39,244 nucleotides of DNA from an uncultured Rikenellaceae bacterium (GTDB lineage: Bacteria > Bacteroidota > Bacteroidia > Bacteroidales > VadinHA17). The position numbers and the translations under genes are program-made. Below, one piece after another: positions 11,727-30,599 of this stretch (positions are counted from its first letter, which is position 1; each line of letters starts with the position of its first letter). Location: NCBI GenBank assembly GCA_964411285.1, contig CAYPKL010000187.1, forward strand, positions 1-39,244. Direction: 5' to 3'. Under the pieces are notes generated by a model. That model did not search any database. It saw only the letters and a program-made list of their open reading frames with translations, and was not told the origin of the DNA.

Positions 11727-12426
11727 GGTATTTATTATTCAACACATCGTCTGAATTGAACTGGAATCCAAGACGTTTACCTGTTATCACCCGTGAATGT
11801 TGAATTTTCGCCTCAGCTTGTCCTACCGTCGCTATTTTAACCGTATCGTATGGGGGGACAAGTAAATCGAATTCAAGTGAGTATTGTATTGCTGTAGAAA
11901 TAATTAATTGTAATGAGGACCTGCTGATTGCCTCATTCCCGTAATTTGAGAAAAGCATTCCCATCTGTCTTTTACCTTCAACAAAATACTGGTTCTCATG
12001 ATTAATGAATATTCTTGCGATTAAATAACCAAGATCATCTAATCTGGAATACCTGAATGAATCAAAAAGGAAGTTATAAATATTAATTATGCCCGAGTAT
12101 GCGTTGAATTTATTCTTTTGTATATAGGGTGTTTTCCATGCAGGATGTTCACGGTCGAACTGAAATATATTTGAATGCATGCTAAAAAGCAGTATATCAC
12201 CTGCTACTTTCACCTGTGCATCAAAATTGCTCCTGTCGGTATATTCCAATTTAATCCGGTTATCAAGCCCTCCCAGACTGGTATTTATATCCCTCGACAA
12301 AGTTTTTAAGATATCCTTTATAACAGCGAACCACTCAAGGGTATTATCATATACTTTTTGTTTAAGGAGCGATTTTTCCTTTAGGGTTCCGATAATTACA
12401 AGCTTTTTATCATCCATTTCGGCCAT
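11716..12426 (-). CDS. Uncharacterised cytoplasmic protein (no recognisable domain)
   Basis: Intact 236-aa ORF with no signal peptide. Its stop overlaps the start of the Omp85-like gene by 11 nt, and it lies downstream of proS on the same strand. Confidence 0.6.
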   Translation of the reverse strand: MAEMDDKKLVIIGTLKEKSLLKQKVYDNTLEWFAVIKDILKTLSRDINTSLGGLDNRIKLEYTDRSNFDAQVKVAGDILLFSMHSNIFQFDREHPAWKTPYIQKNKFNAYSGIINIYNFLFDSFRYSRLDDLGYLIARIFINHENQYFVEGKRQMGMLFSNYGNEAISRSSLQLIISTAIQYSLEFDLLVPPYDTVKIATVGQAEAKIQHSRVITGKRLGFQFNSDDVLNNKYHET

Positions 12427-14050: not shown

Positions 14051-14141
14051 TTTTTGGTATGGTATTTGTTTTAATACATAAAAAATAAGGTCGTAAAAAT
14101 AAATATAAAACTTGGAAATTAATAAAACCAGGGGGTGCATC

Positions 14142-15593
14142 ATGAAAACAATATCTTACATTGGCATCTTATCGGCACTTCTGCTTACAGGATTCTCTGC
14201 AAAAGCACAGGATGCTGACTATGAAAATTACAGCAACGATGACGCCAGAGTAATCGTAAACAACTATTATGATAATAATGGCTCTGATTACTATTATTCA
14301 TCAAGAATTAACAGGTTTCACAGATCGTATGCTGCTTTTGATTATTATTCACCTGTCTATACTGATTCATACTGGTACGATTACGATCCATGGTCGTGGG
14401 GTATAAGTATTTACAGCGGAGGTTTCGGATTTAACCTTGGATATAATCCCTATTATTACAATTATTATCCTTACAGCTACGGTTGGAACGATCCATATTA
14501 TTATGATTCTTATTACCGGGGATATTCCCCCTGGTACTATAGTTACTGGAGACCATCGATCTGCTGGGGATTAGGAAGTCTCTGGTCAGATTTTACGTGG
14601 GGTTTAACCCGACCCTTCTATTGGATGAATAACATGTGGCACGGATTCGGACATTCATATTATGGCTATCATAATCATTTTTATAATGATTATTCCTACC
14701 GTTATTCATCAGATTACGGGAGGCATAATTTTGAAGCAGGAGGACGTGGTTTCAGACAGGGATCCAATCAGGAGTCCAGGAGAGGTGAATCAATTAATAA
14801 TCCTTCAGGGAGAGATGGAAATTACCGCCGGGAAAATTATGATAACGTATCCGGAAATATTGAGGGAAGAAGGAACGGCAATTCCGCAATTAACAACGGA
14901 CAAAATCGCGGTTCAGCCGACAGATCATATTCAGCCGGCAGAGGATCATCATCTCCGGATTTACGAAGATCAGATAATTCTGGTTCTGCTTCCCGGAATT
15001 CCGGAAATCAGGGTAGCTATAACACTACCAACCGGAGAACCGGTGAAATGAGGAGCAATCCGGGATACAATAACAGGGTAAATCAGAACGCTTCCAGTCC
15101 TGCTACACGAAGAGCAGTTGAAACAGGTTCGAACCGTGGATATGCAATTAACAATAATTCATCAGGAAATTCAAATGTATCCAAACGGAGCACAATGGCC
15201 GGTAATGCAAACCAGCCCTCCTCCCGGCGTTCCTCAGTGTATGGTCAGACTAATAATTCGCACAGCACCAACCGGTCTGTGTCCGGAAGTTTGGGCAGAC
15301 CTTCAGTCAAGTCCGGATCTATGAGTGCATCAGCAAGAAATTCTGGCTCAATATCACGCAATTCAGGCTCTATATCGCGTAGTTCCGGCTCAATGTCACG
15401 CGGCTCAGGTTCAATGTCACGAAGTTCAGGCTCAGTGTCACGAAGTTCAGGCTCAGTGTCACGAAGTTCGGGGTCAATGTCACGAAGTTCAGGCTCAATG
15501 TCAAGAAGTTCGGGTTCAATGTCACGAAGTTCGGGCTCAGTGTCACGAAGTTCGGGCTCTTCTCATTCCTCCGGAAACAGGGGAAGAAGATAG
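14142..15593 (+). CDS. Secreted low-complexity protein: signal peptide, Tyr/Trp-rich region, Ser/Arg/Asn/Gly-rich polycationic tail with 7-aa tandem repeats
   Basis: Signal peptide '[24 protein letters not shown]' at the ATG at 14142. The aromatic-rich block includes e.g. '[35 protein letters not shown]'. The tail ends '...[21 protein letters not shown]'. It is a paralog of the next gene. Confidence 0.7.
15339..15569 (+). repeat. 11 tandem copies of a 21-nt unit (consensus agt tca ggc tca atg/gtg tca cga) encoding (S/N/G)SGS(M/V/I)SR, in frame inside the 14142-15593 CDS
   Basis: Counted directly. Units begin at 15339, 15360, 15381, 15402, 15423, 15444, 15465, 15486, 15507, 15528 and 15549. 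Units 5 and 6 are identical, and the last unit is degenerate. Confidence 0.95.
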
Positions 15594-15748: not shown

Positions 15749-17074
15749 ATGAAAGCACTATACTACATATTCGGAATTGTAATTCTTACTCTGGCTTCCT
15801 GCTCTTCAGGACTTTATGTAGGAACTGAATATGATGATATTTACTATCAAAAATCAGACAGACCGGTAACCCGGGCTCAGTCGGCAGATAATCAGCCTAT
15901 TGTTGAGGGTAATCTTAAGTCGGATAATTATTATAATAATATCTATGCAACTGATACTCTTGTATCCAATGAATATTCAGACGCAGTTGACAATAATGAT
16001 GCAGGGGTTTATAATGACTATTATGATAATTTTGATAATTACTCTTATTCAGGCAGGTTAAGGAGATTTTATGGAAGTTCCTTTTATCCTTACTGGAGAG
16101 ATCCTTTTTACATGATGCCTTCTTTCGGATACAATTCTTTCTATGGCGGCTTCCCTTATTCCTATAATCCTTATTCCTACGATTCATATTTCTATGATCC
16201 ATACTATTCATATGGTTATGGCGGTTATTATGGCGGCGGGTTTAATGGCGGTTATTATGGCAACTATTTTTACGGAGGATTATATAACAGATTTTACAGT
16301 CCTTATTACAGTTACTATTCTCCTTATTATGGTGAAAGTAATATCTCTTATGGAAGAAGAGAAAGGCAGAGCACTTATTCGACAAAATGGTCAGGCGGCA
16401 ATGCTTCTCCCGAGGCTTCAGCATCCAGAAGAGCTACAAATGCCACCGGAGGATCAGGTACCTCAGAAGCCGCCAGGCCTGCTTCAGGTGAGGTTGTAAC
16501 CTCAGGTTCACGGAGAACTTCATCACAGGGGACTTCTCAGCAAGCTGGAACAGCTACTGAAAGAAAACTTGATCAGAATTCTTCAAAATCCGGTAGTGAG
16601 AACCTGTCAGGCAATCAGTCAAGAAGGAGTTCCGCTGATTCAAGACCTGAATACAACTCTGTCAACAGGAGCTATACACCCAGCTACAGTAATCCCAGGA
16701 TGAGCACACGGCCATCATACAATAATACAAGGGTTAATTCAAATGTTAACAACAATAATTCATCAACCCGCAGATATTATCAGAATTCATCAAACAGCGG
16801 AAGAAACAATTCATCATATTCTTCAGGTCAGCCCAGATCCAACTCTTCAAATAGTGGTTCAGGAAGTTATTCAACTCCCTCCAGAAGAAGCTCAGGCGGA
16901 GGAACCTACTCAGGAGGATCTTACCGTTCATCAGGAGGATCAACCTATAGCAGTGGTTCATCTTCAGGATCATATTCGAGAAGCAGTGGTGGCTCATATT
17001 CATCAGGCTCCTCCTCTTCTTCATCCTCCGGGAGTTCATCAGGCTCATCAGGCTCATCAGGCAGAAGGAGATAG
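15749..17074 (+). CDS. Lipoprotein paralog of the preceding gene: lipobox, Tyr/Gly-rich region, Ser/Arg/Asn/Gly-rich tail
   Basis: Lipoprotein signal 'MKALYYIFGIVILTLASC'. It shares the module 'NDYYDNFDNYSYSGRLRRFY' with gene A. The aromatic block includes 'SYGYGGYYGGGFNGGYYGNYFYGGLYNRFYSPYYSYYSPYYG'. The tail ends 'SSSSSSSGSSSGSSGSSGRRR'. Confidence 0.7.
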   Translation: MKALYYIFGIVILTLASCSSGLYVGTEYDDIYYQKSDRPVTRAQSADNQPIVEGNLKSDNYYNNIYATDTLVSNEYSDAVDNNDAGVYNDYYDNFDNYSYSGRLRRFYGSSFYPYWRDPFYMMPSFGYNSFYGGFPYSYNPYSYDSYFYDPYYSYGYGGYYGGGFNGGYYGNYFYGGLYNRFYSPYYSYYSPYYGESNISYGRRERQSTYSTKWSGGNASPEASASRRATNATGGSGTSEAARPASGEVVTSGSRRTSSQGTSQQAGTATERKLDQNSSKSGSENLSGNQSRRSSADSRPEYNSVNRSYTPSYSNPRMSTRPSYNNTRVNSNVNNNNSSTRRYYQNSSNSGRNNSSYSSGQPRSNSSNSGSGSYSTPSRRSSGGGTYSGGSYRSSGGSTYSSGSSSGSYSRSSGGSYSSGSSSSSSSGSSSGSSGSSGRRR

Positions 17075-18733: not shown

Positions 18734-19336
18734 CTAAAGATACTCAATTGATTCCGGCCCCATATTGAATATAAGGTCAAGAATACTTAGCCGGGGTACA
18801 AATCCGCTGTTATTAAATACTTGTATATATGCCTTTTGATGGATATCTGACTTCACTTTTGGTGATATTCGGTACCTAAAATCATTATCTGGAACGGTAA
18901 CAGGTTCGTAAGAAAGGGTGTAAGAAATATTCTTATTTATTTGAAGGATTTCAAGGCATTTCTTAAGCAGTTCAATATTAAGATCGAGAAGGAATTTGTG
19001 ATTGCTGATCAGTATCTTTTCAAAACTGTCAGAAAAAAACTGGAAATAGGGTGAACGGTTATAAGAGGAGGTGAGGGCCCTTAAATGAATCTGCTGCCAT
19101 CTTTTTGAGTAATCGATCCTTACATCCTTTGTTTGTGTTTTAATACTTCCGCCTTTGAGAACAGGGACAGAAAGGTTCATTATACCGTTTGATGTGAGAA
19201 TCCTGCACCTGTTACGGTATGTCTGCTTCAGATAATTTTCTTCCTGTTCAATGCAGACTTCTTCAGAATTCCTGATATGACCGAAATATTCTGAGGGAGG
19301 GAAATAGGCAGTAGAGAGTAGTATTTTCCCGGGCAT
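18734..19336 (-). CDS. WbqC-family protein (function unknown)
   Basis: N-terminus 'LSTAYFPPSEYFGHI...EENYLKQTYRNRCRILTSNGIMNLSVPV' matches my memory of the WbqC-like family signature. The gene starts 7 nt after the larB stop. Confidence 0.7.
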   Translation of the reverse strand: MPGKILLSTAYFPPSEYFGHIRNSEEVCIEQEENYLKQTYRNRCRILTSNGIMNLSVPVLKGGSIKTQTKDVRIDYSKRWQQIHLRALTSSYNRSPYFQFFSDSFEKILISNHKFLLDLNIELLKKCLEILQINKNISYTLSYEPVTVPDNDFRYRISPKVKSDIHQKAYIQVFNNSGFVPRLSILDLIFNMGPESIEYL

Positions 19337-19343
19337 AAAAAAT

Positions 19344-20093
19344 CTACTTCATCTGATTGATCATACTTGCAGAAAAACCGGCTCCGAATCCATTATCGAT
19401 ATTTACCACGGTCACGCCGGAGGAGCAGCTGGTGAGCATCGCGAGAAGTGCGGAGATGCCTCCGAAATTTGCACCATATCCTACACTTGTAGGTACTGCA
19501 ATTACAGGTTTATCTACCAGACCGCCTACTACGCTTGCCAGTGCACCTTCCATTCCTGCTATTACAATAACTACCCTGCAGCTTCTTATTTCCGGTAGCT
19601 TGTCGACCAGACGGTGAATCCCCGCAACTCCGGCATCGTAAATCCTTAATATTTTATTACCAAGAAGTTCAGCGGTTACCGCAGCTTCTTCTGCAACAGG
19701 AATATCAGATGTCCCGGCGGTAATAACTGCAATTCTACCTTCCGGACTTACAAGTTTCTTCTTCTGAACGCTAATGATCCTGGCTTCGGGATAAAAAAGT
19801 GCTGAAGCGACTGCTTTTTTCACAGCCTTAAACATCTCTTCACTGGCACGCGTTCCAACAACATTGTTTTCTTTCTCAGACATTATTCTGAAAATTTCAA
19901 CCACCTGACCGACTGATTTGCCTGCACAATATATAATTTCAGGGTAGCCGGTACGAATTTCCCTGTGATGATCTATTCTTGCAAATCCAAGATCTTTGTA
20001 AGGAAAATCTCTGAGGACTTCAAGAGCCTGTTCAACACTTTTTTTTCCATCCCTTACTTCATTAAGAAGATTTTCAATTTCTTTTTTTGTCAT
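19344..20093 (-). CDS. larB: Nickel-pincer cofactor biosynthesis protein LarB (PurE-like NaAD carboxylase/hydrolase)
   Basis: ~120-aa N-terminal extension followed by a PurE-like domain 'IAVITAGTSDIPVAEEAAVTAELLG...VIVIAGMEGALASVVGG'. The start overlaps the larE stop (ATGA). Confidence 0.85.
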   Translation of the reverse strand: MTKKEIENLLNEVRDGKKSVEQALEVLRDFPYKDLGFARIDHHREIRTGYPEIIYCAGKSVGQVVEIFRIMSEKENNVVGTRASEEMFKAVKKAVASALFYPEARIISVQKKKLVSPEGRIAVITAGTSDIPVAEEAAVTAELLGNKILRIYDAGVAGIHRLVDKLPEIRSCRVVIVIAGMEGALASVVGGLVDKPVIAVPTSVGYGANFGGISALLAMLTSCSSGVTVVNIDNGFGAGFSASMINQMK

Positions 20094-20893
20094 ACAATTG
20101 AATTTACCGGATCGGAGCTACCTGATCTGTATCCTTCGAGATCCAAAGATATATATCTGAATCCGATTTTTTTTAGATTCTCTATAATAAGTTCTTTTTC
20201 AGGTGTGTGAACAATCTTTTCCAGATATCCCGGGAGGCACTCAAGTCTTGCCAGATCACCATGGACTCTGACTCTGGTTCCCGGATAGCCTTTTGAAGTA
20301 AGAAAATACTCTGCTTTTTCAATCATATTAAGCACTACGGTATCGATTTCATTATTATAAGGAATTCTTGTAAGCAGACAGGCCATTGCAGGTTTGTCCC
20401 AAAACTGAAGGCCGGAATGGTGTGAAATCTCCCTTATATCATTTTTCGTCATTCCTGCCTCGAGCAGCGGACTTCTTATATTTAGCTCCTGTAAAGCTTT
20501 AAGCCCGGGCCTGAAAACTTTTGTGTCATCCGCATTTGTTCCGTCAATAACGTGGCTGTATCCATTTTCTGCTGCAAACGAAAGTAATTCCGTAAAAAGA
20601 GTCTTTTTACAGAGATAACATCTTTCAACTGGATTATTTCTGATAACCTCAGGGAAAGTAATATCTATTATTTTGTGATTTATTCTGTGGGTTATGGCAA
20701 ACTCAGCAGCTTCTTTTATTTCAACGGCTGGAATATAGGGTGTCCTGATTGTTACACCAACGATATTGAGACTCTTCAGAGTATGCGCCCTGTAAAGAAG
20801 AAATGAACTGTCAACTCCTCCTGAAAAGGCAACGACGAATGATTTGAGGTCCTTCAGAATTGTATCGAGTTTTTCCAGTAGATTATTTTCCAT
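20090..20893 (-). CDS. larE: NPN cofactor sulfur-insertion protein LarE (ATP pyrophosphatase, PP-loop)
   Basis: PP-loop 'VAFSGGVDSS', 'CYLCKK' (C92, C95) and 'PAMACLLTRIPY' (C172). Confidence 0.85.
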   Translation of the reverse strand: MENNLLEKLDTILKDLKSFVVAFSGGVDSSFLLYRAHTLKSLNIVGVTIRTPYIPAVEIKEAAEFAITHRINHKIIDITFPEVIRNNPVERCYLCKKTLFTELLSFAAENGYSHVIDGTNADDTKVFRPGLKALQELNIRSPLLEAGMTKNDIREISHHSGLQFWDKPAMACLLTRIPYNNEIDTVVLNMIEKAEYFLTSKGYPGTRVRVHGDLARLECLPGYLEKIVHTPEKELIIENLKKIGFRYISLDLEGYRSGSSDPVNSIV

Positions 20894-20896
20894 GGT

Positions 20897-22075
20897 TTAA
20901 TTCTGAGCCTTGGTTATTACTGAAATAATATTGTTATATACATCTTTTAAGGGGATTCTCCTTTCCAGGGCAATTCTTTTGCAATCTTCAAATTCAGGTT
21001 TAACAGATACCACTTTCCCCTTGAAATATGAGTGTTTTAAAGTGACCTCACCATATATTGTGGGAACCTTGCTGAATTCTCTTACAAGAGTATCTTTCCT
21101 GAATTGAAAAGTTCTGATCCCAAGTGATGTTGACTCTGAGAACACGATCTCTTTAACTAAGTCAGCCAGACCTGTTTCGCAGATTATGTTCAGTATTATT
21201 CCGGGTCTTCCTTTTTTCATGATGATGTTTGTATAAAACACATCTGAAGCGCCTGCTTTAAAAAGCCGGTCGGATATGTGCTCATAGAATTCAGGATTCA
21301 TGTCGTCGATATTACACTCAATATGGAGAGCATCATGTCCTGTATTTTCATTATCAGCAATTTCTCCAAGCGAAACTCTCAGAAGATTAGGAACATCAGG
21401 ATGATCCTTATGACCAACTCCATAGGCTGTTTTACTGATCCTGACAGAAGCGTTGCTGCCAAAATCAGTTCCCAGAGCGGAAAGTATTGCAGCACCGGTT
21501 GGGGTTGTTGCCTCAAAATCGACCCCCCCCTTCCTTACAGGAATCCCTTTGATGATTTCAATTGTTGCCGGAGCAGGAACAGGTAGTTTGCCATGTTCAC
21601 ATCTGACAAAACCTCCGCCAAGTTCAACTTCTGATACAAAAACCCTGTCAACATTAAGGGCATGAAAACAAATTGCTGCACCTGTAATATCAATAATGGA
21701 ATCAATGGCTCCAACCTCATGAAAATGAACCTCATTCACATCGATCCCATGAACAAGAGCTTCTGCTTCGGCCACCTTTCTGAAAATCTTCATTCCCGTT
21801 TTCTTAACGTCCTCATTAAGTGAGGAACCTGAAATTATTTGCTCAATATCTGAAAGGTGCCTGTGATTGTGATCATGGAGGGTCTGCTTTACCGTGACTT
21901 TGGTTCCCATTATGCCGTGCCGCTGGTCTTTTTCTGAAATCAGTTCCCAGCCTTTGAGATTTAATTTACTTAGTTCTTTAATAAGGAAATCTTTGTCGAC
22001 TCCTAACTCCAGCATTGCACCTAAATTCATATCACCGCTGATCCCGGAAAAACAATCATAAAATAATACTTTCAT
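20897..22075 (-). CDS. larC: Nickel insertion protein LarC (DUF111), single intact ORF
   Basis: N-terminus 'MKVLFYDCFSGISGDMNLGAM', His-rich 'TLHDHNHRHLSD', and a length typical of full LarC1+LarC2. Confidence 0.88.
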   Translation of the reverse strand: MKVLFYDCFSGISGDMNLGAMLELGVDKDFLIKELSKLNLKGWELISEKDQRHGIMGTKVTVKQTLHDHNHRHLSDIEQIISGSSLNEDVKKTGMKIFRKVAEAEALVHGIDVNEVHFHEVGAIDSIIDITGAAICFHALNVDRVFVSEVELGGGFVRCEHGKLPVPAPATIEIIKGIPVRKGGVDFEATTPTGAAILSALGTDFGSNASVRISKTAYGVGHKDHPDVPNLLRVSLGEIADNENTGHDALHIECNIDDMNPEFYEHISDRLFKAGASDVFYTNIIMKKGRPGIILNIICETGLADLVKEIVFSESTSLGIRTFQFRKDTLVREFSKVPTIYGEVTLKHSYFKGKVVSVKPEFEDCKRIALERRIPLKDVYNNIISVITKAQN

Positions 22076-22253
22076 ACATTCTTAACATTAAAAATATTAA
22101 ACAAATAATAACAAGGAAAGTTAATATAGATCAAATTCTGATTAATGAATTCAATCGGGTTGCTAATATACAATTTACATTGATTATGGAATAATAATAA
22201 AAAAATGTCGTATTTTTCGAATCCTTTCTGTTTATGGTTAGCAATGATTGGAA

Positions 22254-23177
22254 ATGATGAAAAGAAGAGCTTTTTTTAAAACCTCTCTCAGTGCCGGACT
22301 AGCCACAGGAGCTGTTTTTAGCTTAGGTGGTTATAATAAACTATGGGCATCTTCTCCGGTTGCTGCAAAATACGATATGATTGCAGTTATGGGTGGTAAC
22401 CCTGACTCAATGTTCGATCTGGGCATACAGGAGTTGGGAGGGATAGGTGAATTTGTAAAGAAAGGTCAAAAAGTACTGATTAAACCTAATATTGGATGGG
22501 ATGTCCTGCCTGACCTCGCTGCAAATACCAATCCCCTGCTTGTAAAAAGAATTATAGAACACTGCTTTAAAGCTGGTGCTAAGGAAGTTTATGTACTCGA
22601 TCATTCAATTGACAACTGGATAAATACCTATAAGAATTCCGGTATTGAAAAAGCCGCTAAATCAGCCGGGGCAAAAGTAGTACCCGCTAATTCTGAAAAA
22701 TATTATCAGGAGATAAGTATTCCCGCCGGAGTAAAGCTTAAAAACGCTAAAGTCCATGAGCTTCTACTGGAGACAGATGTTTATATAAACGTTCCTGTTT
22801 TAAAGGACCACAACTCAACACGAATGACCTGTTCCCTGAAAAATGCAATGGGACTTGTCTGGAACAGGGGATACTGGCATGCCAACAACCTCCATCAGTG
22901 CATTGCCGATTTTGCGTTGTTTGAGAAGAAACCGGCGCTTAATATTATTGACTGCTACAATGTTCTCGTAAAACATGGTCCAATGGGAGTTTCAAAAGAA
23001 GATGTTGTACAAATGAAGTCACTTATTATAACAACTGACTGGGTTGCAGGTGATGCCGCTGCTGCCAAAATGCTTGGTATTGAACCTGAAAAAATTGATT
23101 ATCTTCTTATTGCAAGCAAAATGGGAATTGGGAACATCAAGCTGGACACGCTTAATATTAAGCGTATTAAAATGTAG
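22254..23177 (+). CDS. Tat-signal DUF362-domain protein
   Basis: Twin-arginine signal 'MMKRRAFFKTSLSAGLATGAVF'. DUF362-like motifs 'KVLIKPNIG', 'VPVLKDHNSTRMTCSLKNAMG' and 'IIDCYNVLVKHGPMG' are present. There is no Cys cluster motif. Confidence 0.65.
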   Translation: MMKRRAFFKTSLSAGLATGAVFSLGGYNKLWASSPVAAKYDMIAVMGGNPDSMFDLGIQELGGIGEFVKKGQKVLIKPNIGWDVLPDLAANTNPLLVKRIIEHCFKAGAKEVYVLDHSIDNWINTYKNSGIEKAAKSAGAKVVPANSEKYYQEISIPAGVKLKNAKVHELLLETDVYINVPVLKDHNSTRMTCSLKNAMGLVWNRGYWHANNLHQCIADFALFEKKPALNIIDCYNVLVKHGPMGVSKEDVVQMKSLIITTDWVAGDAAAAKMLGIEPEKIDYLLIASKMGIGNIKLDTLNIKRIKM

Positions 23178-23183
23178 TTGAAA

Positions 23184-24743
23184 ATGACCTCATCCTTTCT
23201 CAGAAGATTTCGCATAGTTTTTTCTGCAGTTATCCTGGTATTCTTCATTTTTATTTTTATCGATTTCAAAGCGATAATGCCTAAGAATTATATTAATTAT
23301 CTGCTTTATTTCCAGTTTATTCCTTCTGTTATAAAATTTTTTAACCTTAAGACAATTGCTGCAGGAGGATTTTTAGTTGTGCTGTTACTTACTCTCCTCT
23401 CCGGCAGGACATATTGCTCATTCCTTTGTCCTCTTGGAATAGGACAGGACCTTTTCAGCAGAATAGGTGGTTACATCAAAAAAAAATTCAGAAGGTTTGG
23501 TTATAAAAAACCTTATACAATTATCCGTTATTCAATTCTGGTTATTACAATCGCCGGGACTATAATCTGGGGTATATATTTTTTGACACTCCTGGATCCC
23601 TACAGCATATTCGGCAGATTTATGACCTATCTTATAAAACCGGTTGTTTTATTGTTAAATAATTTTTTTTCGGGGATACTTGTTAAATTTGATAATTATT
23701 CATTAAATCATATTCAACTGGATGGCTATGAACTTATTACTTACTCCTTACCATCAGCTTTCTTCATTATTGTAGGCCTCCTGTCACTGACAAAAGGCAG
23801 ACTCTATTGTAATATGATCTGTCCGGTAGGTACTTTTCTGGGATTTCTGTCAAAAATATCACTTTTCCGGATCAGGTACAATGAAAGCAAGTGTACCCGA
23901 TGCGGAAGATGTTCAATTGGATGTAAATCTTCATGTATCGACTTCCTGAATCACGAAATTGATGTAACCCGGTGTGTTAATTGTTTTGACTGCATTTATA
24001 CTTGTCCCGAAAAAGCTTTGTCTTACACCTTTATTGGTCACGAAACTGAAGACCGGAAAACTGATGAGAGCAAACGTAAATTTATCGCCGGATCACTTCT
24101 TCTTCTTTTTGGCATACCATATTCTTCAAGAGGACAGGAGAAAAGCGTTCCTGTTCCGAAAAGAGAGTCTACCGTTAAAGAAGAAAAAACATTTCCGGTC
24201 TGCCCTCCGGGCGCCGGATCTATTGAGGATTTCAACAGTCATTGTACAGCTTGCTCACTTTGCATTACAGTGTGCCCGAATAATGTGCTTGAGCCGGCCA
24301 TAAGGCAATACGGTATAGCTGGATTTATGCAGCCGGTGATGGATTATCATAAAGGTTTCTGTCAGTATAACTGCACAAAATGTACAGAAATTTGTCCCAC
24401 CTATGCATTAAAACCACTTTCTCTCGAGGCTAAGAAACTGAGTCAGATCGGGAAAGCTATATTTATTAAGGACAATTGCATCGTTAAAACTGAGAAGACT
24501 GCCTGTGGAGCCTGCTCAGAAAGCTGTCCGACAAAAGCTGTTTACATGATCCCGTATGAGGGTAATCTTGTTATTCCTGAAACAAACGAGGAAATATGTA
24601 TTGGCTGCGGACATTGTGAAAATGCTTGTCCGACAACTCCATACAAAGCTATTTATGTAAATGGTAATCCTATACATCTTGCAGCCAAAAAGCCTGAAGT
24701 AAAAGAAACGGGAATTACCAAACCTGAGGATTTCCCGTTTTAG
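23184..24743 (+). CDS. Membrane-bound NapH/MauN-like polyferredoxin (multiple 4Fe-4S motifs)
   Basis: The N-terminal half has several TM helices and two CxxxCP motifs ('CSFLCPLG', 'CNMICPVG'). The C-terminal half has about six ferredoxin-type motifs ('CTRCGRCSIGC', 'CVNCFDCIYTCP', 'CTACSLCITVCP', 'CTKCTEICP', 'CGACSESCP', 'CIGCGHCENACP'). Confidence 0.8.
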   Translation: MTSSFLRRFRIVFSAVILVFFIFIFIDFKAIMPKNYINYLLYFQFIPSVIKFFNLKTIAAGGFLVVLLLTLLSGRTYCSFLCPLGIGQDLFSRIGGYIKKKFRRFGYKKPYTIIRYSILVITIAGTIIWGIYFLTLLDPYSIFGRFMTYLIKPVVLLLNNFFSGILVKFDNYSLNHIQLDGYELITYSLPSAFFIIVGLLSLTKGRLYCNMICPVGTFLGFLSKISLFRIRYNESKCTRCGRCSIGCKSSCIDFLNHEIDVTRCVNCFDCIYTCPEKALSYTFIGHETEDRKTDESKRKFIAGSLLLLFGIPYSSRGQEKSVPVPKRESTVKEEKTFPVCPPGAGSIEDFNSHCTACSLCITVCPNNVLEPAIRQYGIAGFMQPVMDYHKGFCQYNCTKCTEICPTYALKPLSLEAKKLSQIGKAIFIKDNCIVKTEKTACGACSESCPTKAVYMIPYEGNLVIPETNEEICIGCGHCENACPTTPYKAIYVNGNPIHLAAKKPEVKETGITKPEDFPF

Positions 24744-24850: not shown

Positions 24851-25255
24851 ATGAATCCCTCACATATTGAACATATTGGAATTGCAGTTGAAAATCTCGA
24901 GAATTCAATCAGATTATACGAAACTATCTTCGGATTAAGTTGCTACAGAATTGAAGAAGTAGCCGACCAGAAAGTCCGTACCGCATTTTTCAAAATAGGC
25001 AAGACAAAAATTGAGCTTCTGGAATCGACAGACCCCGAAGGACCGATCAGTAAATTTATTCAGAAGAGAGGCGAAGGTGTTCATCACCTTGCATTTGCAG
25101 TTGATAATATTGAAGAAAAACTTGAAGCGGCACAAAAAGCAGGGGTAAAACTGATTGATTCTGTTCCAAGAGCAGGGGCAGAGGGATTGGAAATTGCATT
25201 TTTGCACCCGAAGTCCACTTATGGGGTGCTTATTGAATTATGTGAAAAAAAGTAA
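24851..25255 (+). CDS. mce: Methylmalonyl-CoA epimerase (VOC/glyoxalase fold)
   Basis: 'IEHIGIAVENLENSIRLYETIFG...GEGVHHLAFAV...IAFLHPKSTYGVLIEL', 134 aa, located immediately upstream of the carboxyltransferase. Confidence 0.85.
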   Translation: MNPSHIEHIGIAVENLENSIRLYETIFGLSCYRIEEVADQKVRTAFFKIGKTKIELLESTDPEGPISKFIQKRGEGVHHLAFAVDNIEEKLEAAQKAGVKLIDSVPRAGAEGLEIAFLHPKSTYGVLIELCEKK

Positions 25256-25274
25256 ATAAGTTATTATTAAATAA

Positions 25275-26834
25275 ATGGATAGTCAGGAAAAAGTCAAAAA
25301 ATTAATCGACCTGAGAGAAAAAGCCCGTCTGGGAGGAGGAATTCAAAAAATTGACGACCAGCATTCCAAAGGACGATTAACAGCAAGGGAAAGAATTAAT
25401 ATCCTGCTTGATGAAGGCAGTTTCGAAGAGTATGATATGTTCGTGACCCACAGGACTGAAGATTTTGGAATGGGTAATAAAAAATATCTTTCCGATGGAG
25501 TTGTTACAGGTCATGGTACCATTGACGGAAGAGTAGTGTTTATTTTTGCCCAGGACTTTACAATATTCGGCGGATCACTGTCGGAAACATTTGCTCTTAA
25601 AATCTGTAAGATAATGGATCAGGCCATGAAAGTTGGAGCTCCTGTAATTGGTATTAACGACAGCGGAGGAGCAAGGATCCAGGAAGGTGTAAGAAGCCTG
25701 GCCGGATATGCCGAAATTTTCCAGCGTAATATTCTGGCATCAGGCGTGATTCCACAAATATCAGCAGTCTTTGGCCCGTGCGCGGGAGGAGCAGTTTATT
25801 CGCCCGCTCTTACTGACTTCATCATTATGAGTGAGAAGAGCAGCTATATGTTCGTAACGGGACCAAAAGTTACAAAAACAGTGACAGGTGAGGATATTTC
25901 AACAGAGAACCTTGGCGGATCCCATGTTCATGGAACCAAATCGGGAGTTGCTCATTTTGTCGTTGATGAGGAGGAACATGGCCTTTTGCTTATCCGCAAA
26001 CTACTTAGTTATCTTCCACAGAATAATATGGAGGAGCCGCCTCTAACCGAATGTGACGATCCGATAGAAAGGAAAGATGATGACCTGAACAGAATTATTC
26101 CTGAAAATACAAATCAACCTTATGAGATAAAGGATATTATTTATAAAATTATTGATAATAATGAATTCCTGGAGATCCACGCCGGGTATGCCAGAAATAT
26201 AGTTGTTGGTTTTGCAAAAATGGGTGGTATGCCTGTTGGAATTGTTGCAAATCAACCTAATTTTCTGGCCGGAGTGCTCGACATAGATGCATCGAGAAAA
26301 GCAGCAAGATTTGTAAGGTTTTGTGATGCTTTTAACATTCCTATTATTACCCTGGTTGATGTCCCCGGCTTCCTGCCAGGCAGTGGACAGGAGTATGGCG
26401 GCATAATCGTCCATGGGGCAAAATTGATGTTTGCTTATGGAGAGGCCACAGTACCAAAAGTTACGGTCACTCTGCGAAAGTCGTATGGGGGAGCTCATTG
26501 CGTAATGTCATCAAAACAGTTGCATGGCGATATTAATTATGCATGGCCTTCAGCCGAAATTGCCGTGATGGGGCCATCAGGGGCAATAGAGATCCTCGAA
26601 GGCAGGACATTAAGTGAGATTAATGACCCTGATAAAAAAGCGTCATACATTTCTGAAAAGGAAACTGAATACCGGAATAAATTTGCAAATCCCTATGAGG
26701 CAGCCAGATATGGCTACATCGACGATGTCATTGAACCCAGGAATACAAGATTCAGAATTATCAGGGCCCTGCGGACTCTGGCAACAAAGAAAGATCCGGG
26801 ACCTATGAAAAAACATGCCAATATACCTTTGTAA
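25275..26834 (+). CDS. mmdA: Methylmalonyl-CoA decarboxylase alpha subunit / acyl-CoA carboxyltransferase
   Basis: Carboxyl-transferase family motifs 'FAQDFTIFGGSL', 'NDSGGARIQEG' and 'GPCAGGAVYSPALTDF', 519 aa. The decarboxylase assignment (rather than carboxylase) rests on operon context. Confidence 0.85.
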   Translation: MDSQEKVKKLIDLREKARLGGGIQKIDDQHSKGRLTARERINILLDEGSFEEYDMFVTHRTEDFGMGNKKYLSDGVVTGHGTIDGRVVFIFAQDFTIFGGSLSETFALKICKIMDQAMKVGAPVIGINDSGGARIQEGVRSLAGYAEIFQRNILASGVIPQISAVFGPCAGGAVYSPALTDFIIMSEKSSYMFVTGPKVTKTVTGEDISTENLGGSHVHGTKSGVAHFVVDEEEHGLLLIRKLLSYLPQNNMEEPPLTECDDPIERKDDDLNRIIPENTNQPYEIKDIIYKIIDNNEFLEIHAGYARNIVVGFAKMGGMPVGIVANQPNFLAGVLDIDASRKAARFVRFCDAFNIPIITLVDVPGFLPGSGQEYGGIIVHGAKLMFAYGEATVPKVTVTLRKSYGGAHCVMSSKQLHGDINYAWPSAEIAVMGPSGAIEILEGRTLSEINDPDKKASYISEKETEYRNKFANPYEAARYGYIDDVIEPRNTRFRIIRALRTLATKKDPGPMKKHANIPL

Positions 26835-26845
26835 ATCCGATAAAA

Positions 26846-27208
26846 ATGCATCCTGGCATGATCCTTATTACAGAAATGACACCACACCAGATTACTCTGG
26901 TTAATGTGCTTATAATTTTAAATATAGCTTTACTTTCAGTTGTATTCCTGTTCCTGTTTTTCCGTTACCTGCTTCCATGGATTTCCACCTTCAGGCCCAA
27001 CAAGAGAAATAACAAAATTTCTGATAAGACAGCTGTGAAGCAATTTCATGATGAGCGTTCCGCTGACAAGGCAGCTGTAGCAATGGCCCTGTACCTTTAT
27101 TTTAATGAAACCCATGATGAGGAGAGCGATATAATTACAGTAAAACGCGTTTCTAAAACATATTCACCATGGAGTTCAAAGTTATACAGTATGCGAAATC
27201 TACGATAG
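26846..27208 (+). CDS. OadG-family / MmdD-like small membrane subunit
   Basis: One TM helix ('LVNVLIILNIALLSVVFLFLFF') followed by 'AAVAMALYLYFNETHDEESDIITVKRVSKTYSPWSS', which resembles the Bacteroidota OadG-like proteins found between mmdA and the BCCP gene. Confidence 0.6.
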   Translation: MHPGMILITEMTPHQITLVNVLIILNIALLSVVFLFLFFRYLLPWISTFRPNKRNNKISDKTAVKQFHDERSADKAAVAMALYLYFNETHDEESDIITVKRVSKTYSPWSSKLYSMRNLR

Positions 27209-27268
27209 TATCAATCTATTTATTATTCACTTAAGCGGTTAGTTAAATAACCGGTTTATTTCTGGGAA

Positions 27269-27688
27269 ATGAAAAACTTTAAATTTGCGATTGACGGAAA
27301 AGAATACGACGTGGAAGTCCTCTCACTCAATGGGACTACTGCTAAATTGAAAGTAAATGGCACTGACTATAACGTTGAGATACAAAAAGAAACGAAAGTC
27401 AATAAGACTCCGATTGTTGTGAGATCATCAATCAGGGAACCTCAGAAAGATATTGAGAAAAAGACCGGCGGTCCGAAAACTGAAGTTAAGTCCCCGCTTC
27501 CAGGCATTATTGTAAAGATATTTGTTACTGTCGGTGAGTCGGTTCAGAAAAATCAGAGATTATTCAGTCTTGAGGCAATGAAAATGGAAAATGAAATAAA
27601 AGCGGAACGAGACGGAGTAATTACAGGTATTAAGGTTGCACCTGGGCAATCAGTACTTCAGGATGAAAATATTTTGGAAATGGATTAG
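27269..27688 (+). CDS. mmdC: Biotin carboxyl carrier protein (MmdC-like)
   Basis: Biotinylation motif 'LEAMKMENEI' in a C-terminal biotinyl/lipoyl domain, 139 aa. Confidence 0.85.
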   Translation: MKNFKFAIDGKEYDVEVLSLNGTTAKLKVNGTDYNVEIQKETKVNKTPIVVRSSIREPQKDIEKKTGGPKTEVKSPLPGIIVKIFVTVGESVQKNQRLFSLEAMKMENEIKAERDGVITGIKVAPGQSVLQDENILEMD

Positions 27689-27762
27689 TAATACCTGCAA
27701 TTTTAATTACCTCACCTGTAATCTATTCTGTTTCTTCCGGCTGTTTACATAAAAAAAAATAG

Positions 27763-27770
27763 TAGGTTTG
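27763..27770 (+). promoter_or_regulatory. Bacteroidota -7 promoter box (TAGGTTTG)
   Basis: Exact TAnnTTTG match 25 nt upstream of the citDE ATG, inside the 106-nt gap after the BCCP gene. It overlaps a small hairpin, gtttgt-attgaa-acaaac. Confidence 0.5.
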
Positions 27771-27794
27771 TATTGAAACAAACCAGTTGGTAAT

Positions 27795-29012
27795 ATGAGC
27801 ATTATGTTGGCACATGCTGGAAATTCAGGTCCCAAAGTCAGATCCGATTGTGAGGTAACTCTTGAGTTGAAAAACGAGGGAGGAATAGTAATTGAACTGA
27901 AATCAAAGGTTTACCCTTTATATGGCGTTTCAATAAAAAATCTTTGCCTTGATATCCTGTCATTTTTCGGAATTAAAGATGCTTATCTGAAAATCGAAGA
28001 TGCCGGAGCTCTGCCTTTTGTTATTTCGGCCCGACTGGAAGCTGCTGTAAAGCAAATTGTGGATACGGACCTTGAATATCTTCCTGATCTTATTTCTGAA
28101 AACCTCTATTCAACAAACGCTGACAGGTTTCGTTTTTCTCGTCTTTATCTCCCCGGCAATACACCCGGCATGATGATAAATGCGGGATTACATTCCGCAG
28201 ACGGCATTATCCTGGACCTTGAGGATTCAGTAGCTCCTGAAAGAAAAAATGAAGCCAGAATACTTGTCAGGAACGCTTTGAGGCAGGTAAATTTCTATGG
28301 TGCCGAGCGTATGGTAAGGATAAATCAGGGGGACCGCGGACTGAGGGATCTTGATTCCGTTATACCCCATAATGTAAATCTGGTACTTATTCCCAAATGC
28401 GAGAACCCCGATGCTATTGTTTCTGTAGAAAAACGGATTTCAGAAATAAAGAGGCGCCATAACCTTAATAATCCAGTATATCTTATGCCGATCATTGAAT
28501 CGGCGCTCGGAATTGAAAAAGCATTCATGATTGCCGGATCTTCAGAAAACATTGTGGCATTGGCAATAGGACTGGAAGATTTTACTGCTGATCTGGGCGT
28601 TCAGAGAACAAAGGAGGGTATAGAGTCACTCTATGGAAGAACAAGGTTGGTGATAGCTGCCAAGGCTGCGGGTAAACAGCCGATTGATTCTGTGTTTTCG
28701 GATGTAGATGATATGGATGGACTTCTGAAAAATGTCCTGGCCTCGAAAGCTCTGGGTTTTGAAGGAATGGGATGTATACACCCTCGTCAGATACCAGTTA
28801 TCAGGCAGGGATATGCTCCTGAAAATGGTGAAATAGAAAAATCCAAAATGATCGTTATGGCTTTTAAAGAGGCTGAAAAAAAAGGTCAGGGAGTAGTTGC
28901 CCTGGGATCTAAAATGATCGATTCGCCTGTGGTGGCTCGGGCACAAAAAACAATTGACCTTGCAATTAAGCTGGGGTTATTACCAGACAACTGGATAAAT
29001 GAAATTTCCTAG
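27795..29012 (+). CDS. citDE: Fused citrate lyase acyl carrier protein (gamma, CitD) and citryl-CoA lyase (beta, CitE)
   Basis: The N-terminal ~95 aa are CitD-like ('AGNSGPKVRSDCEVTLE...', compare the AGTLESxDV prosthetic-group Ser region). The remainder is CitE/HpcH-like ('RLYLPGNTPGMMINAGLHSADGIILDLEDSVAP', 'MPIIESALGIE', 'LEDFTADLG'). Confidence 0.75.
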   Translation: MSIMLAHAGNSGPKVRSDCEVTLELKNEGGIVIELKSKVYPLYGVSIKNLCLDILSFFGIKDAYLKIEDAGALPFVISARLEAAVKQIVDTDLEYLPDLISENLYSTNADRFRFSRLYLPGNTPGMMINAGLHSADGIILDLEDSVAPERKNEARILVRNALRQVNFYGAERMVRINQGDRGLRDLDSVIPHNVNLVLIPKCENPDAIVSVEKRISEIKRRHNLNNPVYLMPIIESALGIEKAFMIAGSSENIVALAIGLEDFTADLGVQRTKEGIESLYGRTRLVIAAKAAGKQPIDSVFSDVDDMDGLLKNVLASKALGFEGMGCIHPRQIPVIRQGYAPENGEIEKSKMIVMAFKEAEKKGQGVVALGSKMIDSPVVARAQKTIDLAIKLGLLPDNWINEIS

Positions 29013-29042
29013 AAAAGAATAAAAATTAACCTGACAGGCGAT

Positions 29043-30599
29043 ATGGCAATCCCTACTGTTATTAATGCTGCCGGCAGAGCAGTGCCTCTCGAAATCAATG
29101 GTAAAGCTGTCATCCCTTTTAAAGGAGTAGGAGGGTACAGGCCATCAGGAAATAAGTATGGCCCGCCAATCCCGACTTGTGCAGATTTTCCTGGTGATGG
29201 CAACAAGGTAGTATCATCACTTGAAGAAGCCCTTAGCAGGTGTGGCCTCCGTGACGGAATGACAATTTCAACCCATCATCACTTACGGGATGGCGATCTT
29301 GTGAGTAACAAGGTATTTGACCTGGCGTCGGCAATGGGGGTGAAAGATCTTGTCTGGTTCCCTTCAGCTTCATTTCCATGTAATGATCCTGTAATTAAAT
29401 ATCTTGAAGACGGAACCATTAACAGGATTGAAGGTAGTATGAATGGTCCGCTGGGAAGGTTCGTTTCCGAGGGAAGGATGAAAGGTACTGCCGTATTGCG
29501 ATCACATGGCGGACGTGTTCAGGCTATACAGGATGGTGATGTAAAAATAGATATCGCAGTAATAGCAGCTCCTTCTGCCGATTATTACGGAAATGCAAAA
29601 GGTACTGGTGGCCGTTCTGCCTGCGGTGTTTTGGGTTATGCAAAGGTTGATTCAATGTATGCTGAAAAGGTGATTGTTGTGACCGACAATCTGGTGGATA
29701 TTCCATGCTTTCCAATGGAGGTTGAAGGGAATAATGTTGACTATGTAGTTGTTGTTGATAAAATAGGGATTCCGGAAAAAATTGTGTCAGGCACTACCCA
29801 GATCACAAAGAGCCCCGACAGATTATTGATTGCAGAACTCACCGCATCTTTTCTGGAAAAATCTGGCATTCTCAAAGATGGTGTTACAATGCAGGCAGGG
29901 GCTGGTGGTACTTCATTGGCAATAGCCGTGTTCCTACATGAGATTTTAAGGAAAAGGGGGTGGAAGTCAAAATTTGGATTCGGTGGCAGCACCAGGTACA
30001 TGGTTGAAATGCTTGAACAGGGGCAGATGGGATATATTCTTGATGCACAGGTTTTTGATCTTGACTCTGTAGTTTCAGTTGGAAAAAATCCCAACCATAT
30101 CCCATACTCGGTTTTTAATGCTTATAACTACCATTCTAAAGGTAATCTTACCAGTATGATGGATATTATGATACTTGGCGCTACCGAAATTGACCTTAAA
30201 TTCAATGGTAATGTGGTCACTCACTCTGACGGATATCTGCTTCACGGAATCGGAGGCTGGCAGAATTGTCTGCACGCAAGAAACGTAATATTGCCGGTAC
30301 CTCTTTTCCGCGACAGGATACCCGTTATTGTTGATGAGGTTACAACACTTTGTGGTCCCGGAGAGCTTATTGATGTAATTATCACCGAAAGAGGGATAGC
30401 AATTAATCCTTTGAGAAAGGATCTTATTGAGAGCGTCAGAAACAGCAATCTTCCTGTTGTGACCATTGAGGAGCTTAAAGCTGAAGCTGATAAAATATGC
30501 GGTATACCAATGAAACCTGAGTTCGAAGATGATATTGTTGCAGCCATAAAATGGGTCGATGGCACCGTAATTGATGTTGTCCGAAAAATTAAATCCTGA
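29043..30599 (+). CDS. citF: Citrate lyase alpha subunit (citrate CoA-transferase)
   Basis: 518 aa. 'KVVSSLEEALSRCGLRDGMTISTHHHLRDGD' and the overall length and pattern are typical of CitF. It sits immediately downstream of citDE. Confidence 0.8.
   Translation: MAIPTVINAAGRAVPLEINGKAVIPFKGVGGYRPSGNKYGPPIPTCADFPGDGNKVVSSLEEALSRCGLRDGMTISTHHHLRDGDLVSNKVFDLASAMGVKDLVWFPSASFPCNDPVIKYLEDGTINRIEGSMNGPLGRFVSEGRMKGTAVLRSHGGRVQAIQDGDVKIDIAVIAAPSADYYGNAKGTGGRSACGVLGYAKVDSMYAEKVIVVTDNLVDIPCFPMEVEGNNVDYVVVVDKIGIPEKIVSGTTQITKSPDRLLIAELTASFLEKSGILKDGVTMQAGAGGTSLAIAVFLHEILRKRGWKSKFGFGGSTRYMVEMLEQGQMGYILDAQVFDLDSVVSVGKNPNHIPYSVFNAYNYHSKGNLTSMMDIMILGATEIDLKFNGNVVTHSDGYLLHGIGGWQNCLHARNVILPVPLFRDRIPVIVDEVTTLCGPGELIDVIITERGIAINPLRKDLIESVRNSNLPVVTIEELKAEADKICGIPMKPEFEDDIVAAIKWVDGTVIDVVRKIKS

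Follow-up and report, generated by a model that had tools for sequence, protein, structure and literature searches.

When the genes for a nickel cofactor stand without the gene of its one long-known client, which protein takes up the cofactor? This question is raised by a window of 39,244 nucleotides (nt) from an uncultured Rikenellaceae bacterium (contig CAYPKL010000187.1), to the whole of which all coordinates given here refer. Its minus strand carries a larC-larE-larB operon for making nickel-pincer nucleotide (NPN), a synthesis in which LarB is responsible for the carboxylation and hydrolysis of nicotinic acid adenine dinucleotide (NaAD), LarE for the sulfur-transfer step, and LarC for the insertion of nickel. 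No gene for LarA (DUF2088) was detected in the window, either by Pfam scans of open reading frames (ORFs) of at least 120 residues or by tblastn with LarA, in agreement with an earlier note on this stretch that had described the operon as one without a known client. Transcribed divergently from larC are two genes on the plus strand, encoding a DUF362 protein of 307 residues with a twin-arginine translocation (Tat) signal (22254–23177) and a polytopic polyferredoxin of 521 residues (23178–24743). On the grounds of its sequence and its predicted structure, the DUF362 protein is proposed here as a strong candidate for a new kind of NPN enzyme.

The first part of the answer lies in the fold. The DUF362 protein matches PF04015 over the whole model, positions 1–200 (E 3.5e-46; 158 bits against a gathering cutoff of 24), and sequence searches of the PDB, with either the protein or a 107-sequence profile as the query, retrieved no relative. 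An AlphaFold model built with 141 homologues has a mean predicted local distance difference test score (pLDDT) of 87.8, and only residues 1–35 are disordered. The kinship with LarA that the earlier note had raised emerged when this model was compared with the PDB by Foldseek: the top 18 matches all belong to the LarA family (including 9EIA, 4NAR, 8EZH, 2YJG, 9Q3J, 7S91, 5HUQ, and 6C1W), with a probability of 1.00, E values from 9e-6 to 4e-4, and template modelling (TM) scores of 0.40–0.53 normalised to the query. The next match is an unrelated methyltransferase with a TM score of 0.26. By its model, the DUF362 protein is thus a shortened LarA relative, a ‘mini-LarA’ of approximately 270 residues in its mature form. 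Pfam likewise holds both DUF362 and LarA_N (DUF2088) in clan CL0471, and it was because of this common clan that DUF362 sequences were taken as the outgroup in a 2024 study of LarA (PMC11770544).

The second part concerns the active site. An hhalign alignment places residues 48–199 of the DUF362 protein on residues 37–187 of LarA, and pairs D175, H186, T192, and K196 with D163, H174, S180, and K184 (Lactiplantibacillus plantarum LarA numbering, for which H108, H174, K184, and H200 were checked against 5HUQ). In LarA, K184 is the lysine that tethers NPN. The D-11-H-10-K spacing is identical in both proteins, and the same alignment recurs in every hhalign run. A LarA hidden Markov model (HMM) searched against 108 DUF362 proteins also picked the D/H/K motif in four of the best five matches, as exemplified by ‘AKQHGLAGYTGAMKNL’ against ‘epHflaGfsGGrKsi’ or, at greater length, ‘DADRLINIPVAKQHGLAGYTGAMKNL’ against ‘eadlliatGliepHflaGfsGGrKsi’. 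The motif ‘KDH..T.MT.SLKN.MG’ (residues 184–200), whose Lys and His the earlier note had judged to be of the LarA kind, is therefore precisely the stretch that aligns, with the same spacing, to H174 and K184.

This motif belongs to a conserved stretch, D175...H186...T192...K196...G200...R205...H209, encoded at 22776–22880 (plus strand). Among approximately 148 DUF362 relatives collected from genomes and metagenomes, K77, N79, T92, D116, Y126, N179, K184, H186, R205, D219, D233, and D267 are invariant, D175 and N197 are almost so, with one or two exceptions apiece, K196 and H209 have a single exception each, and position 192 is T or S. The conservation is the same in proteins with and without adjacent lar genes. 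In parts of the alignment that are of low confidence, the ribose-binding Asp72 of LarA falls at N79/I80; as for the phosphate/carboxylate-binding Arg75, 77 of 126 DUF362 family members have R84, a position held by Val in the window protein. The minimal active site of LarA has been described in 2025 as one catalytic His, a nickel-binding His, a Lys, a ribose-binding Asp, and a phosphate-binding Arg/Lys (PMC12611868); of this set, the sequence of the DUF362 protein clearly retains the Lys and one His.

The DUF362 protein is also predicted to leave the cytoplasm in a folded state. In its N-terminus, MMKRRAFFKTSLSAGLATGAVFSLGGYNKLWA/SS, a twin-arginine motif (MMKRRAFFK) precedes a mildly hydrophobic region and a cleavage-type site (LWA), and the signal peptide is predicted to span residues 1–33 (22254–22352, plus strand; K3-R4-R5-A-F-F-K) with cleavage after LWA. 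These features fit the pattern expected for Tat substrates, namely S/T-R-R-x-F-L-K, a moderate hydrophobic core, and an AxA-type site. The two arginines are found in 108 of 125 diverse representatives of the DUF362 family, and the Akkermansia orthologues begin with M[KQ]RRDF[IL]K. Both the near-consensus signal KRRAFFK (residues K3–K9) and the four scattered cysteines with no obvious Fe-S site had been reported in the earlier note, and both descriptions stand: C104, C193, C216, and C234 are the only cysteines of the protein, and no Fe-S, molybdenum cofactor, or haem motif was found in its sequence. Since the Tat signal is present in nearly the whole subfamily and no classical Tat-cofactor motif accompanies it, this export route would be accounted for by a cofactor whose synthesis and attachment take place in the cytoplasm, and NPN is such a cofactor. 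In the longer DUF362 representatives, no additional informative domains were found.

A sub-threshold NCBIfam match (E 2e-17) links the DUF362 protein to an ‘Npun_F2552 family’. This name is presumably a Nostoc punctiforme locus tag, in which case the family would be cyanobacterial; no mention of Npun_F2552 was found in the literature searched. Most cyanobacteria make NPN without having LarA (PMC11796402).

The gene that follows supplies the putative redox partner. The DUF362 stop codon TAG ends at 23177, a TTG stands at 23178, and the first ATG at 23184, so that the gap given as 7 nt in the earlier note is in fact 6 nt to the ATG, or zero if TTG is the start. As that note had recognized, the product holds two CxxxCP motifs and about six 4Fe-4S motifs. 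The former are membrane-proximal (C80 and C211), the latter number six and are of the ferredoxin type, and five hydrophobic helices are present as well; among Pfam models, Fer4_5 matches twice, beside Fer4 families. Its description as NapH-like proved right for the membrane part and too narrow for the whole protein. From the N-terminus, a NapH-like membrane part leads into a 2x[4Fe-4S] domain, after which come an internal Tat-like motif with a weakly hydrophobic helix and then a NapG/NapF-like 4x[4Fe-4S] domain. The N-terminal part matches NapH/MauN models and the C-terminal part matches NapF and NapG (NCBIfam), with scores far under the equivalog level (NapH, 80–91 bits against cutoffs of 213–234; NapG, 53 against 269).

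In the stretch that separates the dicluster domain from the last four Cys motifs, the polyferredoxin reads ...DESKRKFIAGSLLLLFGIPYSSRGQEK..., where alignment and hydropathy place a putative internal Tat-type signal (K299-R300-K301-F-I-A-G-S) and a helix of low hydrophobicity (residues 302–317), encoded at 24072–24128 (plus strand). In 59 homologues this position is occupied by [KR]-R-[KRA]-F, and in Akkermansia by SRRAFLG, a textbook twin-arginine motif; the parsed loci carry KR in 44 cases, like the window copy, and RR in 25. The hydropathy of the last helix is 0.9–1.3 versus 1.8–2.6 for the other five, and positive charges follow it. A polytopic polyferredoxin with dual Sec/Tat insertion has been described as a NapH-NapG fusion, in which reporters demonstrated that the last helix depends on Tat (Tooke et al. 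2017, PMC5449189). That protein, PFD of the delta-proteobacterium MLMS-1, shares with the window polyferredoxin the NapH-like helices, the cytoplasmic clusters, a Tat-like motif before a weak last helix, the downstream positive charges, and the NapG-like four-cluster domain. It differs in having R-R where the window copy has K-R, although many orthologues of the latter also have R-R. The window polyferredoxin thus matches, in its sequence features, a NapH-NapG fusion of the dual Sec/Tat family with a predicted internal Tat-type signal. From this signal and the PFD-like architecture, the Fe-S chain is predicted to cross the membrane, two of its clusters lying on the cytoplasmic and four on the periplasmic side. 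The family described here always follows a Tat-DUF362 gene, whereas DUF362 has zero occurrences in the text of the study on PFD (PMC5449189).

The constancy of this pairing was examined in 73 loci from a scan of species-representative genomes and 80 from a metagenome scan. Wherever the contig continues, the polyferredoxin gene directly follows the DUF362 gene in Bacteroidota, Ignavibacteriota-type, and Verrucomicrobiota loci, and the pair is also present in Prolixibacter, Melioribacter, and Parabacteroides distasonis, the last of which is a cultivable gut species. The two genes are a fixed module.

The association of this module with lar genes is complete in the clade of the window (at least approximately 58% identity), where a divergent larC-larE-larB operon was found in 80 of 80 informative loci. 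It recurs in two of the 28 informative loci of a second, Bacteroidota-type clade, referred to as clade B (L144 and L148), and in one of ten from Akkermansia (A. glycaniphila, L060). The nearest non-identical relatives of the A. glycaniphila LarC (55–57% identity; P0401 and P0395) divergently adjoin a DUF362-polyferredoxin pair as well, which brings the adjacency to at least three species of Akkermansiaceae; within Akkermansia, the DUF362 proteins with and without adjacent lar genes are interleaved by identity. The identity to the window proteins falls in parallel in L148 and A. glycaniphila for LarC (49% and 42%, respectively), LarE (49% and 38%), LarB (64% and 44%), DUF362 (55% and 46%), and polyferredoxin (43% and 34%). 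Such parallel divergence of five genes between clades fits a five-gene block that has travelled as a unit, by inheritance or transfer, and has broken up in many lineages.

A more distant case was found by a search of plasmid records in Streptomyces sp. NBC_01450, where a cytoplasmic DUF362 protein with 24% identity and no signal peptide is encoded beside larE-larB-larC. In locus L179 (NZ_CP109481.1, 33000–52000), genes for a LuxR regulator, an acyltransferase, DUF362, and a cyclase are divergent from those for 3-deoxy-D-arabino-heptulosonate 7-phosphate (DAHP) synthase, a chorismate-binding enzyme, LarE, LarB, and LarC. The DUF362 protein of L179 has 418 residues, with a Cys-containing C-terminal extension and the motif RTH-x9-KNLVGLLPG. 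The cluster looks biosynthetic, and the region is unannotated in its record. When LarA was used as the tblastn query, no homologue appeared in the window, in 157 loci, or in L178–L180, and a scan of viral contigs for LarA homologues yielded one fragment.

Taken together, these features suggest how the locus may work. The two genes would encode a two-subunit oxidoreductase facing the periplasm. The DUF362 protein would receive, in the cytoplasm, the NPN that LarB, LarE, and LarC make from the divergent operon; Lys196 would tether the cofactor, His186 would act as acid/base, His209 would probably sit on the nickel, and Tat would then export the folded holoprotein. In the periplasm, it would dock on the polyferredoxin at the four-cluster, NapG-like domain. 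The last helix and C-terminal domain of the polyferredoxin would likewise be placed by Tat, and its NapH-like membrane part and cytoplasmic clusters would link the chain either to the menaquinone pool or to a redox partner in the cytoplasm. Hydride chemistry at NPN on a periplasmic substrate would thereby be coupled to net electron flow, whereas in LarA the same chemistry forms an internal, ‘hidden’ redox cycle. NPN binding, the docking of the subunits, the direction of electron flow, and the nature of the substrate are what we infer here. A substrate of the sugar type, or another hydroxy compound, is a reasonable guess and no more, since the carboxylate-binding residues of LarA are absent and carbohydrate-binding modules and dockerins occur fused to other DUF362 domains (PMC5742341). 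We give this chain as a whole, in which a periplasmic, LarA-like catalytic subunit would depend on NPN and be wired to the quinone pool, an even chance of being correct.

The main competitor of this proposal accepts the periplasmic redox module and the LarA fold, but has the subunit use another cofactor or none: the conserved Lys, His, and Asp residues would serve to bind either a substrate or some simple metal ion, the client of the lar operon would be another protein encoded elsewhere in the genome, and the adjacency would be inherited synteny. Several of the observations that speak against the proposal also favour this explanation, which we regard as rather unlikely. The profile similarity to LarA is weak, with hhalign E values of 0.14–0.21 when a single LarA sequence or a three-sequence profile is used and 0.06 with a 13-sequence profile (PDB sequences plus larA genes on plasmids), and the real score is reached by two of 120 column shuffles. 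Pfam reports PF04015 alone for the DUF362 protein, without a match to LarA_N (PF09861/DUF2088) up to E 10. The equivalent of the nickel-binding His is ambiguous. H209 is the probable ligand by sequence, but it lies 13 residues after the Lys, a distance that is 16 for His200 of LarA and 15 in the DUF362 protein of Streptomyces, and an extended hhalign alignment places His200 in a gap; H214 is variable among relatives and, therefore, not the ligand. The second catalytic His of LarA, His108, aligns with low confidence to Tyr126. The residues that bind the substrate carboxylate in LarA (Y294, Q295, K298, and apparently R75 as well) are not conserved, and the last ~90 residues of LarA are missing; in the extended alignment, the DUF362 protein ends at around LarA position 336 and its aligned positions are Ala-rich. 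A distribution of the pairs independent of lar genes, which the earlier note had named as part of what would refute the link, was not observed, as the window’s clade and the clade B, Akkermansiaceae, and Streptomyces cases listed above show. Outside the window’s clade, however, most pairs lack an adjacent lar gene: no lar gene lies within 10 kb in 26 of the 28 clade B loci, in nine of the ten from Akkermansia, or around the pairs of Prolixibacter, Melioribacter, and P. distasonis, and in eight lar-less loci a membrane protein of 172 residues takes the divergent position. Akkermansia in general has a stand-alone larC-larE-larB operon, as in A. muciniphila and A. massiliensis. A. muciniphila itself has larCEB and, as the small size of the Akkermansia DUF362 clusters suggests, no close orthologue of this DUF362; from this it follows only that lar genes have other clients. 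What another cofactor leaves without explanation is the recurrence of the divergent arrangement in two phyla and the clustering of a distant DUF362 gene with larEBC in a third, the conservation of the tether Lys and its neighbouring His at a spacing identical to that of LarA, the lack of LarA in every lar-adjacent locus, and a Tat signal for which no alternative cofactor motif accounts.

Even if the DUF362 protein does bind NPN, it might, like LarA, racemise or epimerise its periplasmic substrate without net transfer of electrons, with the polyferredoxin acting only as a membrane anchor or in the reductive repair or activation of an oxidation-sensitive cofactor. All characterised enzymes of the LarA family catalyse racemisation or epimerisation (PMC13524815), NPN enzymes are labile (PMC11796402), and H186 plus Y126 could supply both acid/base groups. 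Nevertheless, a transmembrane chain of six Fe-S clusters that is strictly co-inherited and translationally coupled would be a costly anchor, and the Pfam description, according to which DUF362 domains often occur in proteins also bearing Fe-S-binding domains (quoted in PMC5742341), points to real electron transfer. We consider this role improbable. Less probable still is that the proximity of the lar operon and the DUF362-polyferredoxin pair is a coincidence devoid of functional meaning. The 80 loci of the window’s clade come from related genomes and amount to roughly one event, which would allow for chance, but Akkermansiaceae, the second Bacteroidota-type clade, and Streptomyces show the arrangement as well, the spacer length and its motifs are conserved, and DUF362 is the sole family homologous to the one long-known NPN client.

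An oxidoreductase that uses NPN would differ from known systems in several ways. The LarA superfamily (DUF2088/IPR048068; 5HUQ, 6C1W, 2YJG, 9EIA, and 9Q3J) is like the DUF362 protein in fold, Pfam clan, and D...H-x10-K motif, and the DUF362 gene adjoins larB, larC, and larE. However, LarA has 424 residues, and no LarA has a Tat signal or an Fe-S electron-transfer partner. Another system to compare is NphT, an NPN-dependent homologue of aldo-keto reductases reported in 2026 as the first non-LarA fold to use NPN (Nat Chem 2026, PMC13524815). NphT was likewise recognised as a client by the adjacency of larBCE without larA, and a conserved Lys and His were taken as indicators of cofactor binding. 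NphT is a cytoplasmic triosephosphate isomerase (TIM) barrel for which NPN binding and hydride shuttling between substrates were shown experimentally, whereas the DUF362 protein has a LarA fold by its model and is predicted to be exported. In NapGH quinol dehydrogenase and MsrPQ-type systems, the same logic of a Tat-exported periplasmic catalytic protein with a membrane electron-transfer partner is at work. Unlike NapGH, the present module is accompanied by no NapA, NapB, or molybdoenzyme, with Pfam scans of the ORFs finding no nap genes in the window; instead, the membrane protein is paired with a protein that resembles LarA.

Known already were the DUF362 domain and its place in one clan with LarA, polyferredoxins of the dual Sec/Tat kind, and larBCE operons of the orphan type; a Tat-exported and Fe-S-wired LarA relative as a candidate NPN client would be new. 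Approximately 15% of sequenced prokaryotic genomes have larBCE without larA (PMC11796402), and NPN clients are now being found through their adjacency to lar genes (PMC11796402, PMC13524815). A broader reading is that Tat-DUF362 is the first NPN enzyme outside the cytoplasm with net redox chemistry, in which the electrons of a hydride exchanged with a periplasmic substrate, in either direction, would be led to the quinone pool by an Fe-S wire of six clusters, and that, by extension, the large DUF362 family forms a second branch of NPN enzymes that could explain part of the orphan larBCE operons. This is possible, although we lean against it. For DUF362, a large family to which the literature searched assigns no function and which has no characterised member and no structure found by sequence search, the locus provides a concrete client candidate, a residue (K196), and a built-in redox partner. 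If the proposal is true, nickel-pincer chemistry extends from hidden-redox isomerisation to respiratory-type electron transfer, an organometallic nickel cofactor joins the known Tat cargoes, and a function is gained for a pair that is widespread in anaerobic Bacteroidota, Ignavibacteriota-type organisms, and gut Akkermansia and Parabacteroides.

The operon on the other side of the spacer is well defined. On the minus strand, larC (20897–22075) encodes fused LarC1 and LarC2 (PF01969, E 5e-143; the NCBIfam models for LarC1 and LarC2, TIGR00299 and NF052512, both above cutoff), followed by larE (20090–20893; TIGR00268, 290 bits against a cutoff of 150) and larB (19344–20093; NF033503, 298 bits against a cutoff of 175). 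By eye, LarE carries a C92-x2-C95 pair plus C172, which suggests a catalytic LarE of the [4Fe-4S] type, unlike the L. plantarum enzyme with its single, sacrificial Cys.

The spacer between larC and the DUF362 gene (22076–22253) has 178 nt and is AT-rich, just as the earlier note had reported, and its length is kept among orthologues, mostly at 160–190 nt. Alignment of 65 orthologous spacers reveals two conserved blocks, GCTAATATACAAT (22162–22174) and GTCGTATTTTTCG (22207–22219). The consensus of the Bacteroidetes -7 promoter element is TAnnTTTG, and the blocks appear to resemble such elements, one per strand. The earlier note had suggested a search for shared regulatory sites here; the spacer alignment gave no evidence of a shared regulator site beyond the two blocks, and no riboswitch or other Rfam RNA match was found in the spacer or elsewhere in the window.

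Located 8 nt downstream of larB is a WbqC-like gene (18734–19336, minus strand; PF08889, E 4e-39), which is kept beside the lar operon in essentially all loci of the window’s clade and is absent from the lar clusters of Akkermansia and Streptomyces. Sequence search found no PDB relative of its product, and a single-sequence AlphaFold model failed (pLDDT 33.5). Whether the protein belongs to the system is uncertain: it may assist in making the cofactor, or it may be a mere passenger with an unrelated role.

Some further observations concern the loci collected for comparison. The polytopic membrane protein of ~172 residues that occupies larC’s window position, immediately upstream of and divergent from DUF362, is encoded in L076 (9387–9905, minus strand), L109, L115, L118, L120, L136, L137, and L152, Melioribacter included; it has no Pfam or NCBIfam match. 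Matching of metagenome-assembled genome accessions between the DUF362 loci and the LarC look-ups returned no shared assemblies, and no Parabacteroides LarC was found in the plasmid collection. L178 (P. distasonis ‘plasmid 5’, NZ_OY725750.1) and L180 (Subdoligranulum variabile ‘plasmid 34’) carry chromosomal-type genes (tgt, lptF/G, and xylAB), and these two records look like chromosome fragments mislabelled as plasmids.

Right after the polyferredoxin gene, the plus strand (24851–30599) encodes a methylmalonyl-CoA epimerase, a carboxyltransferase, a small membrane ORF, a biotin carrier, and, further along, a CitE-like lyase with a fused acyl-carrier domain and then CitF. The epimerase gene is syntenic in most loci of the clade, and no functional tie of these genes to the DUF362-polyferredoxin pair was seen. 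Elsewhere in the window, ORFs of 649, 236, and 493 residues at 9777–12426 (minus strand) and 14112–15593 (plus strand) have no Pfam match at E 1e-4. An ORF of 441 residues at 15749–17074 (plus strand) has a lipoprotein-like start (…LASCSS), an extreme content of Tyr, Ser, Gly, and Asn, and a long Ser/Gly tail, and the mirror ORFs on the opposite strand are low-complexity artefacts.

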